Below are positions 29,672-34,123 of a stretch of 64,000 bases of DNA, piece after piece (positions within the stretch are counted from its first letter, which is position 1; each line of letters opens with the position of its first letter). A program made the position numbers and the translations under genes. Below the pieces are notes generated by a model. The model had not been told where the DNA came from. It searched no databases and saw only the letters and a list, made by a program, of their open reading frames with translations. Origin of the DNA: Escherichia phage a48; sequence record OQ067375.1; one strand, 5' to 3'.

Positions 29672-32617
29672 ATGGCTACTTTAAAACAAATACAATTTAA
29701 AAGAAGCAAAACTGCAGGTCAACGTCCTGCTGCTTCAGTATTAGCCGAAGGTGAATTGGCTATAAACTTAAAAGATAAAACAATTTTCACAAAAGATGAC
29801 TCAGGTAGTGTTATAGAATTAGGTTTAAAATATGGAGGAACTATAAATGGGTCTTTAGAGGTTACAGAAAATATAACTGGAACTTTAATTGGAAATTCTA
29901 GCACAGCTACTAAATTGCAAACACCTAGGAAAATTAATGGTATATCTTTTGATGGGTCAAAGGACATTACCTTAACTCCATCTGACATAAATGTCAATAG
30001 CAAAACATTTATAAAAAATAATGGCGAATTACCTACTGATGCTAATTTAGATACGTATGGGCCCATTGAAGAATATCTTGGTGTTTGGTCGAAATCTACT
30101 TCAACAAATGCGCAACCAGCAAATAAATTCCCAGAAGAAAATGCCGTAGGTGTACTAGAAGTGTTTGTGGCCGGCCAATTTGCTGGCACTCAGCGTTATA
30201 CTGTAAGATCTGGTAACGTCTATATTCGTTCCTTATCTGCTAAATGGAATGGCGTCGATGGTCCATGGGGTGTGTGGCGTAATGTTCAAGCGTCAACTCG
30301 TCCACTTTCACGAACGATTGACCTTGATAGCTTGGGAGAATTAGAACATTGTGGCTTATGGCGAAACAGTTCAAGCGCAATCGCATCATTTGATCGCCAT
30401 TATCCAGAAGAAGGATCAGCCGCACAAGGATTTTTAGAAATATTTGAAGGTGGTTTATACACGAGAACTCAGCGTTATACTACCCGCATGGGTATGGTTT
30501 ATACTCGTTGTCTCGCTGCTGCATGGGATGCTAGTGCACCTAAGTGGGAGGAATGGAAGCAGGTTGGTCATGGCACACCAGCGACTTTCTATGATGGAGA
30601 TCTGAATGATTTTAAAACTCCCGGGTTATATAATATTTTAGGCACTGATGCCGTTATTAACTGTCCTACAGGTGAAGGTTTGCCGACTGTTATTGTTGGT
30701 TTGCTGGAAGTTAAACAGCGTGCTTCTGGCGGTGCTATTTTCCAACGTTTCACTACCGCAGGAACGGGTGCAACTACTCGCGATCGTATTTTTGAGCGTG
30801 CATATACTGGTGGTGCGTGGGGTGCATGGAACGAAGTATATACATCTTATTCTCTGCCAATTACTTTGGGTATGGGTGGTATTAAAGCTCAATTAGCGGA
30901 GTTAGATTGGCAAACCTTTGATTTTGTCCCTGGTAGTATGTTTAGTGTTCCTTTGAACAAAATAAAGAATATGCCAGCAAATATGGATTGGGGCACGATT
31001 GATGGAAACCTGGTTATGTTTTCCGTTGGTCCTAGCGAACACACTGGCACAGGACGTACTGTTCAGGTTTGGCGCGGTACTGTATCCCAGACAAACTACC
31101 GTTATTTCGTTGTTCGTATCGCTGGTAATCCAGGAAGTAGGACTAATACTTGTCGCCGTGTTGTTCTTGAAGACGGATCACATACTTGGACTGCTCAACA
31201 AAACTTTAGGGGATTGCTGAATATCACTGCTGCTGTTAATCTTGGTGCTAATCAGAAAATTTCACTTGCTCCAGGAGCATATATTCAAGCCCCTGCTAGC
31301 GGTTCTGGTTCTAATACTTACGCAAATCAGAATATTACCATTGCGCCATTATATCAGGCTATTGACGATTCAAATAAAAACCAGTTTGCGCCAATTGTTA
31401 AACAGAAAAATACTGTAAGTAATATCACCTTTGCCACTGGTATGGCTATAGGTACATCCGAATATAAGATCATTGCTCAGGGTGATTTATCCGCTGATGG
31501 AACAGCAGATGGGTTAAAACAGTGGACTTTCATGCCGTCAGGTTATTTTAAATCTCCAGGGCGTGTATATGTCGGTGATGCGTTCCTTAATACAGATGGT
31601 AATATTGCCGGTTCAATCTGGAATAAATATAACAATGCGACAAATTTAGATGCTGCCTTGAATACTCGCGTAGGTAAAGGCGGTGATACGATGACAGGTC
31701 GGTTAACAATCAATGCACCTAATGATTCTATTGTATTATCAACGACTGCTAGTAATTCTTTGCATATTCGTGGTGACATAGACGGGACTGGTAACTGGTA
31801 TATTGGTAAGGGTGGTGCTGATAATTCGCTAGCATTTTATAGCTATGCTTCTCAGGCGGCAGTACATATCACAAACAATGGTGAGATTGCGTTAAACCCG
31901 CAAAATACCGCAATGGTTAACGTTAACCGTGACCGTGTACACATTAACGGTTCTGGATGGATTGCTAGACAACCGGGTGATTGGGTCAACCAATGGCGAG
32001 TAGAAGCTCCATTATTCGTTGATCATGGTTATGTTTCACAGGATTGTTATTATCCTATTCTTAAAGCAAGAAGCGTTATAACCAATCAAGGATATAGCAC
32101 CGCTGTTGACTTTGGTATGCGTCGTATTCCATCACAGTGGGGGCAAGCAATCATTCGTGTCGGATCCACGGAGGCTTCTCCTGATGCTGGACACCCACAA
32201 GCTGTGTTTGAATTCCATCATGATGGATTCTTTTATACACCAGGAAATGGTAGCTTTAGCGATGTGTATATTCGTTCTGACTCCCGTCTCAAGATTAATA
32301 AAGAAGAATTAGAATATGGAGCGGTCGAAAAAGTTTGCCGACTGAAAGTTTATATTTACGATAAAGTTAAGTCTATTAAAGACCGTAGTGTTATTAAACG
32401 TGAAGTTGGTATTATTGCTCAGGACCTTGAAAAGGAATTACCGGAAGCTGTATCTAAAGTTGAAGTTGATGGATCTGATGTTCTGACAATTTCTAACTCT
32501 GCTGTGAATGCTCTTTTAATTAAGGCTATTCAGGAAATGAGTGAAGAAATTAAAGAATTGAAAACGCCTCTCTTTACTAAAATTGCTCGCAAAATTAGTA
32601 AATATTTTAAATTCTAA
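29672..32617 (+). CDS. 37: gp37 long tail fibre distal subunit with C-terminal intramolecular-chaperone-like domain
   Basis: 981-aa ORF; N-terminus conserved with gp34/gp36 type fibres; C-terminal ~110 aa contains SDSRLK motif and coiled-coil tail. Confidence 0.9.
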
Positions 32618-32653
32618 CAACAAGGGGGAAATGCCCCCTTTGGAGTATAAATT

Positions 32654-33436
32654 ATGGCAGTAGTTGGTGTTCCTGGTTGGATTGGAAGTTCAGCCGCAAA
32701 TGAAACAGGACAGCGCTGGATGAGTCAAGCGGCTAGTCAATTAAGATTGGGTGTTCCTTGCTGGATGAGTCAATTTGCAGGTCGCTCACGAGAAATTATT
32801 CACACGCTTGGAGCAGACCATAACTTCAATGGTCAATGGTTCCGAGATAGATGTTTTGAGGCAGGTAGTGCACCTATAGTGTTTAATATTACAGGTGATT
32901 TAGTATCATATTCTAAAGATGTTCCTTTATTCTTCATGTACGGAGATACACCAAATGAATATGTTCAGTTAAATATACATGGCGTAACGATGTATGGACG
33001 TGGCGGTAATGGTGGTAGCAATAGTCCTGGCTCAGCTGGAGGTCATTGTATTCAAAACGATATTGGTGGGAGACTAAGAATTAATAATGGTGGAGCTATT
33101 GCTGGCGGCGGTGGCGGCGGTGGCGGCGGATATTATTCTCCTTTTTCACAAATGAGATTAACCTTTGGCGGTGGTGGTGGGCGTCCGTTTGGTGCACCTG
33201 GCGGATCTATTGATATGCAATCAGGCGCAACTGCTGGTACTATTTCTGCACCTGGCTCAGGATCCGTGAATGGTATCTATAATGGTGGAAACGGTGGTGA
33301 AGTAGGTTCCGCGGGAGGTAGATGCAATATTCGCGGTCAAGGATCTGAATATAATGGCGGCGCTGCTGGTTATGCTGTCATAGGGTCTGCTCCAACGTGG
33401 CAAAATGTTGGAGCAATATATGGTCCAAGAGTATAA
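32654..33436 (+). CDS. 38: gp38 receptor-recognising adhesin (T2-type, glycine-rich motifs)
   Basis: 260-aa ORF with poly-Gly blocks ([38 protein letters not shown]) separating variable segments. Confidence 0.85.
33104..33130 (+). repeat. (GGC/GGT)9 simple-sequence tract encoding Gly9 in gp38
   Basis: ggcggcggtggcggcggtggcggcgga read directly. Confidence 0.8.
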
Positions 33437-33466: not shown

Positions 33467-34123
33467 ATGGCAGCACCTAGAATATCATTTTCGCCCTCTG
33501 ATATTCTGTTTGGTGTTCTAGATCGCTTGTTCAAAGATAACGCTACCGGGAAGGTTCTTGCTTCCCGAGTAGCTGTCGTAATTCTTTTATTTATGATGGC
33601 GATTGTTTGGTATAGGGGAGATAGTTTCTTTGAGTACTATAAGCAATCAAAGTATGAAACATACAGTGAAATTATTGAAAAGGAAAGAAATGCACGCTTT
33701 GAATCTGTCGCCCTGGAACAACTCCAGATAGTTCATATATCATCTGAGGCAGACTTTAGTGCGGTGTATTCTTTCCGCCCTAAAAACTTAAACTATTTTG
33801 TTGATATTATAGCATATGAAGGAAAATTACCTTCAACAATAAGTGAAAAATCACTTGGAGGATATCCTGTTGATAAAACTATGGATGAATATACAGTTCA
33901 TTTAAATGGACGTCATTATTATTCCGACTCAAAATTTGCTTTTTTACCAACTAAAAAGCCTACTCCCGAAATAAACTACATGTACAGTTGTCCATATTTT
34001 AATTTGGATAATATCTATGCTGGAACGATAACCATGTACTGGTATAGAAATGATCATATAAGTAATGACCGCCTTGAATCAATATGTGCTCAGGCGGCCA
34101 GAATATTAGGAAGGGCTAAATAA
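33467..34123 (+). CDS. t: holin T
   Basis: 218-aa ORF with single N-terminal TMD (VAVVILLFMMAIVW) and large periplasmic domain; position after 38. Confidence 0.9.
   Translation: MAAPRISFSPSDILFGVLDRLFKDNATGKVLASRVAVVILLFMMAIVWYRGDSFFEYYKQSKYETYSEIIEKERNARFESVALEQLQIVHISSEADFSAVYSFRPKNLNYFVDIIAYEGKLPSTISEKSLGGYPVDKTMDEYTVHLNGRHYYSDSKFAFLPTKKPTPEINYMYSCPYFNLDNIYAGTITMYWYRNDHISNDRLESICAQAARILGRAK

Follow-up and report, generated by a model that had tools for sequence, protein, structure and literature searches.

In-frame length variation at the central glycine tract of gp38, the T6-like tip adhesin of Escherichia phage a48

The subject of this study is gene 38 of Escherichia phage a48, which was analysed in a stretch of 64,000 nucleotides (sequence record OQ067375.1; the whole stretch is referred to as the window) that is Tequatrovirus throughout and about 98% identical to the best deposited phage matches over 24 kb. 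The open reading frame (ORF) lies at 32654..33436 on the plus strand, starts with ATG and encodes 260 amino acids; both its extent and the stretches of glycine between variable segments, which an initial annotation had pointed out, were confirmed from the sequence. The ORF itself, Pfam, the PDB matches and an AlphaFold/Foldseek comparison identify the product as a T6-like long-tail-fibre tip adhesin (receptor-recognising protein). It is our opinion that this T6-like adhesin probably carries, at its second and third glycine-rich motifs (GRM2 and GRM3), a hot spot for in-frame length change, the variants of which are usually counterselected but are recovered on hosts like Yersinia. That GRM2 with its three 9-bp units and the GRM3 run 36 bp downstream form a hot spot is shown by the comparison of related sequences, in which the known changes are a gain of 9 bp (Gly12), duplications of 51 bp and 54 bp of the cassette of hypervariable segment 2 (HVS2), and losses of single codons. 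We note that this is a modest new observation and that the gene itself adds nothing new, i.e. gp38 is a known protein of a known family and is identical to a published protein.

The glycine tract and its length variants

Glycine makes up 23% of the gp38 residues, and there are two pure glycine runs, at residues 151-159 and 172-176. The first of these, GRM2 (Gly151-Gly159, 33104..33130, plus strand), is in frame from codon 151 and consists of GGC codons with GGT at the third and sixth and GGA at the ninth position. The (GGY)9 run described in the initial annotation is thus a run of nine glycine codons at this place, of which eight are GGY and one is GGA. According to Tandem Repeats Finder, the 9-bp unit TGGCGGCGG is repeated perfectly 3.0 times at 33103..33129 (100% matches, score 54). 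HVS2 follows directly (residues 160-171, 33131..33166, plus strand) and is the equivalent, by the position of loop B in the PP01 protein, of the distal receptor loop B. Next comes the Gly5 run of GRM3 (residues 172-176, 33167..33181, plus strand; continued by RPFG), which is the direct repeat partner of GRM2, GGCGGTGGTGGTGG matching GGCGGTGGCGGCGG with 86% identity over 14 nt.

The GGN tract exceeds chance expectation. No further (GGN)6 was found in the 64-kb window, and none of 100 dinucleotide-preserving shuffles produced one. The codon choice is also unusual for a window with a G+C content of 35.5%, i.e. GGC accounts for 6/9 of the glycine codons in the tract and for 13% of those in the other long ORFs of the window (binomial P = 2.8e-4). 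The same tendency is seen across 23 gp38 genes, where GGC makes up 54% of the GRM2 glycine codons and 18.5% of the glycine codons elsewhere in gp38. The order of GGC and GGT in the tract varies between otherwise near-identical genes (CCTCCTCCA, CCCTCTCCA, CCCTCCCCA and CTTTCTCCA). What is conserved in GRM2, as far as can be judged from these genes, is the composition and not the nucleotide sequence. In 5 sequences the third-position diversity of the tract is higher than elsewhere (0.27 versus 0.10 per site), but four-fold degeneracy confounds this figure, which was not used as evidence.

Changes in the length of this region were found in close relatives. PYps14T and AV121, with genes 98-99% identical to that of the window, have four copies of the 9-bp unit and thereby Gly12. 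In PYps32T, with a CM8-like background whose relatives have nine codons, there are 12, and one of these has become Val. In PYps47T (L025, 20001-20837) a 54-bp duplication of the HVS2 cassette gives the arrangement G9-HVS2-G6-HVS2-G5, and in Yersinia phage vB_YepM_ZN18 (MN716856, 43980-44813; L010, IMG/VR UViG_2974787500) a 51-bp duplication gives G9-HVS2-G5-HVS2-G5. These two duplications are independent, i.e. they stand in different synonymous backgrounds, and both are bounded by the GRM2/GRM3 glycine runs and belong to phages that were isolated on Y. pseudotuberculosis. The closest E. coli phage relatives of both phages have HVS2 in single copy, those of ZN18 within a normal 783-bp gene. Smaller changes are the loss of one glycine from GRM3 in D5505 and, in two phages of the zoo collection that includes this set of PYps isolates but with another gp38 subtype, a tandem GGQ duplication in GRM1 with an extra Ser after GRM2 (PYps55T; L027, 4168-4977) and the loss of QYGN in HVS3 (PYps35T; L026, 3997-4782).

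In-frame indels at or beside the glycine motifs thus recur. The suggestion that the tract could change length in frame is borne out by near-identical genes, with the 9-bp unit as the step directly observed, and copy numbers of three and four were found between near-identical genomes with 0 substitutions in 40 kb. What did not hold is free variation, which is not tolerated: Gly9 is nearly fixed.

Two further kinds of rearranged gene were seen at this place. Four sequences from Logan/ENA assemblies (P0022, P0023, P0026 and P0109; L041, 1501-2217) encode a gp38 without HVS2, in which GRM2 is joined straight to GRM3; the gp37 on the P0022 contig is only 477 amino acids long. These forms may represent genuine deletion mutants or collapsed assemblies, and Trojet et al. 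report that a deletion of HVS2 in T6 was not recoverable. The other is a 303-residue chimera in the E. coli assembly GCA_031535085.1 (P0034; ABMKHH010000064.1; L042, 4001-4912), in which the N-terminal domain and beta-helix of gp38 continue up to GRM2 (..AIAGGGGGG) and are followed by an unrelated segment with a Peptidase_S74 chaperone and the motif DVYIRSDRRLKI. This gene lies downstream of a fibre gene of 1140 amino acids with Gp34_trimer and S74 domains, in a context unlike that of T-even phages, and its junction falls exactly in the glycine tract.

The adhesin, its scaffold and its specificity class

The family assignment is supported at the level of both sequence and structure. Pfam GP38 (PF05268) matches residues 47-260 (3e-72, 243 bits) and Gp38_N (PF21721) residues 1-42 (1.3e-20, 73.5 bits), in both cases with a cut-off of 25. 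HMMER matches among the PDB sequences were gp38 of PP01 (9V85, 7e-79) and gp38 of S16 in complex with gp37 (6F45_D, 6e-50). An AlphaFold model built on 54 homologues had a mean predicted local distance difference test score (pLDDT) of 88.4, and Foldseek retrieved with it the same two proteins as the only significant PDB matches (9v85_C, E 1e-25; 6f45_D, E 7e-22; template modelling scores 0.78-0.87). The model is in agreement with the three-domain fold of an N-terminal attachment domain, a beta-helix and a polyglycine-II (PGII) sandwich, the PGII geometry as such not being readable from the model output. These matches back the claim that the ORF encodes a tip adhesin belonging to the T2/T6 gp38 family, in which hypervariable segments are set apart by glycine-rich motifs. 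T4 gp38 is a chaperone of 183 amino acids. A gp38 of this type, i.e. an assembly chaperone that is absent from the virion, was considered and rejected, since the Pfam scan gave adhesin families only; the T4-type and the adhesin-type proteins are described as unrelated in the literature. By analogy with the identical protein of fPS-65 and with the studies of T6 and S16, gp38 is presumably a virion protein that sits at the fibre tip and attaches to the receptor there.

An exact look-up found the protein on 19 contigs, including those of Yersinia phage fPS-65 and Escherichia phage APTC-EC-2A, and the DNA of the gene is 99.9% identical to that of fPS-65 and JK23. There is no protein-level difference from the fPS-65 adhesin (or from that of APTC-EC-2A and others), and the gene order gp37-gp38-holin is common to them. 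The T6-like group (T6, RB3, RB5, RB14 and PST) has the same set of HVS motifs as the window protein and differs from it in a few HVS residues; the identity to T6 gp38 (P0003) is 93% over the full length. The more distant proteins of S16 (6F45) and PP01 (9V85) have in common with it the three-domain fold and a glycine run that starts at the same residue number (151-158), but they have eight glycines instead of nine and different loops, and both bind OmpC. We also note that the representative of the 90% cluster (P0001, NCBI PJZ22119.1) is labelled 'receptor-recognizing protein [Bacillus cereus]' and lies on a 171.5-kb contig, which is almost certainly a mislabelled T-even phage genome within a bacterial assembly.

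The position of the tract in the protein can be deduced from these homologues. The S16 protein has ten left-handed PGII helices, which are formed by its glycine-rich motifs and stacked as a sandwich of three layers, with the hypervariable segments as short loops at the ends of this sandwich (PMC6851490). The same work singles out "helix 3; 151-GGGGGGGG-158" and depicts the central helix, the hydrogen-bond network of which is saturated. In the HMMER alignments Gly151-159 of the window protein falls on G151-G158 of both S16 and PP01 gp38, and receptor loop B of PP01 (Q161-V170) comes directly after its G151-G158 run. The model pLDDT is 97 for residues 151-160 and 82 for the HVS2 block behind them, and glycines 152-156 are invariant in the 54 homologues. 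Homology thus shows Gly151-159 to be GRM2, the predicted central PGII helix (helix 3) of a rigid sandwich core, which would lead straight into loop B (HVS2). In other words, because of the S16/PP01 alignment, the pLDDT and the invariant glycines, the tract is best regarded as a rigid scaffold strut and not as a flexible loop. A deletion of GRM2 in T6 gave no viable recombinants.

With respect to specificity, the label "T2-type" that had been given to the adhesin fits the architecture but not the receptor class. HVS2 is of the T6 type (its T6 counterpart is YYSPFPQMRLTF), and the gp38 genes of the BASEL phages KarlGJung and Paracelsus, for which Tsx is given as the primary receptor (Maffei et al. 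2021, as quoted in a citing paper), are 99.7% identical to gene 38 of the window. Trojet et al. found that every T6-like adhesin tested uses Tsx on E. coli. Judged by these near-identical proteins and by the identity to T6 gp38, the specificity class of the window protein is T6-like (Tsx). According to Trojet et al., Y. pseudotuberculosis is without a Tsx homologue, and the changes found in PST, Q167R and M168I in HVS2 and G208I in HVS3, are enough for efficient plating of T6 on Yersinia. For the identical protein of fPS-65 it has been shown that the inner-core heptose region of the lipopolysaccharide (LPS) is needed on Y. pseudotuberculosis, where the resistant mutants map to LPS inner-core heptose biosynthesis (Salem et al.).

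Host range, proposed mechanism and competing explanations

Two pairs of sibling phages bear on the effect of the length changes. Between the complete genomes of PYps32T (165,733 bp) and PYps47T (165,778 bp), a single synonymous C/T in the capsid vertex gene and the GRM2/HVS2 region are the only differences. These phages lyse 87 and 52, respectively, of 128 Y. pseudotuberculosis strains according to the paper that describes them, which mentions a 15-residue insertion without analysing it. They are thus isogenic at the protein level except for the GRM2/HVS2 segment, yet 35 strains apart in host range. The PYps32T allele can be derived from that of PYps47T by a single out-of-register deletion between the glycine runs, the reverse direction or two separate origins being equally possible. 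PYps14T and PYps15T have no substitution over the 40 kb around gene 38 and differ there only by two in-frame indels in this gene. One is the 9-bp unit and the other a 3-bp deletion that removes N210 from HVS3, three residues away from the counterpart of PST G208I. The two genomes differ in length by 10 bp whereas gp38 accounts for 12, and there must therefore be at least one further small indel outside the 40 kb compared. AV121 and its closest genome were considered as a third pair and rejected: the latter (G4500) has a different gp38 type.

The length changes are unevenly distributed over the hosts. Among the matches listed, 4/6 Yersinia isolates with the adhesin type of the window have a changed GRM2/HVS2 length (PYps14T, PYps32T, PYps47T and ZN18), and a fifth, PYps15T, has the HVS3 indel, in contrast to one (AV121) of about 43 E. 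coli/Shigella phages (Fisher P = 3e-4). We consider this host association a lead rather than a result, and the link between length change and host range is circumstantial.

The mechanism that we propose is as follows. The monomeric gp38 would cap the gp37 trimer once the C-terminal chaperone of gp37 has been cleaved off, and the host would be recognised through five distal loops, i.e. the hypervariable segments. The +9 alleles would arise by replication slippage of the 9-bp unit, and the cassette duplications by out-of-register pairing or recombination between the GGC/GGT repeats of GRM2 and GRM3, the match between which is longer in the CM8-like background than the 14 nt of the window. A PGII helix has three residues per turn and a rise of about 3.1 Å per residue. 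One 9-bp unit, i.e. three glycines, would then add one full PGII turn (about 9 Å) and keep the helix hydrogen-bond register, so that loop B may be pushed outward by up to about 9 Å, or be doubled in the case of the cassette duplications. Most length variants would be selected against, which would leave Gly9 nearly fixed, and some would be recovered under selection on a host without the usual receptor (Yersinia, for example), on which they would change the host range. In an AlphaFold model of PYps47T gp38 the fold is kept and the first copy is looped out (pLDDT <50 at 153-170), which says nothing on function. Nothing specific to slippage in gp38 was found in the literature.

A number of observations weigh against this proposal. 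The host ranges of PYps14T (Gly12) and PYps15T (Gly9) are similar, with 78 and 85 of the 128 strains lysed. Both members of each sibling pair carry derived alleles, so that no effect can be put down to tract length by itself; in the case of PYps32T and PYps47T the contributions of tract length, loop duplication and the Gly-to-Val change are inseparable for this reason. The sample behind the host association is small, consists of top-ranked matches, includes sibling phages and is ascertainment-biased, and fPS-65 infects Yersinia with the unaltered allele. Gly9 also dominates where the tract length was surveyed. A search of 50,697 phage records with a synthetic DNA query of two copies retrieved no allele of this kind, all six of the metagenome and IMG/VR contigs with matching flanks have nine codons, and the run length across 95 parsed family representatives is 9 in 49, 8 in 37 and shorter in 9. 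A pattern scan of bacterial genome contigs for the tract gave no matches. Neither the 18 synthetic variants from Gly3 to Gly18, made in two backgrounds, nor the HVS2-duplicated and HVS2-deleted constructs (S28G background) occur among 15 billion proteins; the real PYps14T protein is also missing from this incomplete collection, and absence from it is weak evidence. Because Gly9 is so overwhelmingly dominant, the length of the tract must be regarded as mutable but strongly constrained.

The near-invariance of Gly9 or Gly8 would also be expected if the tract were purely structural, i.e. PGII helix 3 and nothing more. In that case the repetitive coding would be incidental, the rare variants would be neutral or mildly deleterious accidents or artefacts of the laboratory or the assembly, and the HVS loops alone would set the host range. 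The published mapping of specificity to these loops, the inviability of the GRM2 deletion and the similar host ranges of PYps14T and PYps15T agree with such an explanation, and the HVS2-deleted forms were indeed found in Logan assemblies of short reads, in one case beside a truncated gp37. Nevertheless we hold it to be unlikely, given that the variants are present in finished genomes from independent German and Danish laboratories and in ZN18, always in frame, that they are the sole coding differences between siblings 35 strains apart in host range, and that they are concentrated in phages isolated on a Tsx-less host. Far less credible still is the literal content of the initial annotation, according to which the glycine blocks are flexible loops or linkers and the receptor-binding surface is tuned directly by their length. 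Glycine runs of low complexity often act as flexible linkers, and the length of the tract does vary, but the "glycine-rich loops" are contradicted by the crystal structures of the homologues (6F45 and 9V85), in which these motifs form ordered PGII helices whose hydrogen-bond network is saturated and the receptor loops are the variable segments. The confident prediction for residues 151-160 and the invariance of glycines 152-156 point in the same direction, so that we regard this reading as very improbable.

A possibility to be taken seriously, although we lean against it, is that the glycine-codon runs serve mainly as homology patches for recombination between co-infecting phages that swap HVS cassettes, slippage being a side effect. 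This model has been proposed in the literature (the Tetart/Krisch model). At least six HVS2 types that are unrelated to each other stand beside the same Gly9 run, the HVS2 duplications and deletions as well as the P0034 chimera all have GRM2/GRM3 junctions, and GGC is enriched in GRM2 across the 23 genes (54% vs 18.5%). On the other hand, the codon identity between divergent gp38 genes is 0.50 and 0.34 in the glycine-rich motifs as compared with 0.63 in the N-terminal domain, i.e. it is not raised, and there is therefore no sign of selection keeping the nucleotide sequence itself. Moreover, the longest GRM2/GRM3 match in the window is 14 nt at 86%, and neither the +9-bp alleles nor the differences within the sibling pairs need a second parent. 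We note that slippage and homology-patch recombination are not mutually exclusive.

Going beyond the proposed hot spot, one may speculate that GRM2-HVS2-GRM3 of T6-like gp38 is a built-in cassette for in-frame variation, in which slippage or unequal pairing of the GGC/GGT runs would time and again extend the central PGII helix by whole turns or double loop B, and that the rare variants already present would let Tsx-dependent coliphages jump to Tsx-less hosts such as Y. pseudotuberculosis. We offer this tentatively and expect that it may well be wrong; if true, it would mean that the codon repeat is maintained partly for evolvability. Similar phenomena are known from other systems. An in-frame tandem duplication of a short receptor-recognition segment at the fibre tip, associated with an altered host range, is reported for T4, but there it concerns gp37, gp38 of that phage being a chaperone only; in 1996 Tetart and coworkers are said to have described how the host range was widened when a small adhesin domain was duplicated. 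The simple-sequence contingency loci of bacteria likewise have a short tandem repeat in a surface-recognition gene whose copy number varies between close relatives. The tract of the window differs from them in that its unit is a multiple of three, which precludes an on/off frameshift, and in that there are only three copies with one length strongly favoured.

In most T-even phages the host range is determined mainly by the gp38 adhesin, which is also a target for the engineering of therapeutic phages, and helix length or loop copy number is a possible handle for retargeting it. Public genomes already hold natural near-isogenic pairs (PYps32T/PYps47T and, over the 40 kb compared, PYps14T/PYps15T) that differ in coding only by in-frame length changes within or beside the tract or, in PYps15T, within HVS3. 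It also follows from the structures of the homologues that polyglycine blocks in sequences of this kind should be read as rigid scaffold and not as linkers.

Domain map and neighbouring genes

The other parts of gp38 show the alternation of conserved motifs and variable segments that is typical of the family. The N-terminal attachment domain (residues 1-42, 32654..32779, plus strand; Gp38_N match) has the tryptophans W9, W22 and W37, which would dock on the gp37 trimer's tip, a role taken from the description of the S16 structure (PMC6851490); W9 and W22 are invariant in the 54 homologues. Internal DNA repeats in this domain encode GVPGWIG/GVPCWMS and WMSQ. The first glycine-rich motif, GRM1, is GRGGNGG at residues 115-121 (32996..33016, plus strand), where G115, R116, G117, G118 and G120 are invariant. 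The invariant columns of the homologues cluster at G115-G120, G152-G156 and G173-G176, to which P178 and G218 are added, and the segments between them vary.

Upstream of gene 38 lies gene 37, the distal half-fibre gene (29672..32617, plus strand), whose product of 981 amino acids matches Peptidase_S74 at residues 869-927 and gp37_trimer; gp36 is found further upstream. The last 113 residues of gp37 (approximately nucleotides 32276..32614) form a C-terminal intramolecular chaperone, and they are preceded by DVYIR at residues 864-868 (32261-32275). Autocleavage after DVYIR868 (DVYIR^S) is predicted and would expose the docking tip for gp38. For the fPS phages, Salem et al. predicted that autocleavage takes place at DVYIR and lays bare the surface on which gp38 docks; the motif and the cleavage prediction have also been published for S16, and the chaperone is as long as that of S16. 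Downstream is holin t (33467..34123, plus strand; Phage_holin_T, 1.9e-117), and this gene order is common to all related records. In other words, gp38 stands directly after a gp37 with a chaperone of the self-cleaving type and before holin t, which is the context of the adhesin type.

A stem-loop of 8 bp (32621..32642, plus strand; -14.7 kcal/mol, z = -1.7) lies between the stop codon of gp37 and the Shine-Dalgarno sequence GGAG of gp38 (32642..32645); a terminator pattern scan matched here on the minus strand only. TATAAAT at 32646-32652 was considered as a T4 late promoter of gene 38 and rejected, as it abuts the start codon and leaves no space for a leader. Past holin t, between 34124 and 37009, the minus strand carries small ORFs for which the collinear PYps records annotate AsiA (anti-sigma factor), Arn (anti-restriction nuclease) and MotA, i.e. 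this is the usual early region of T-even phages.

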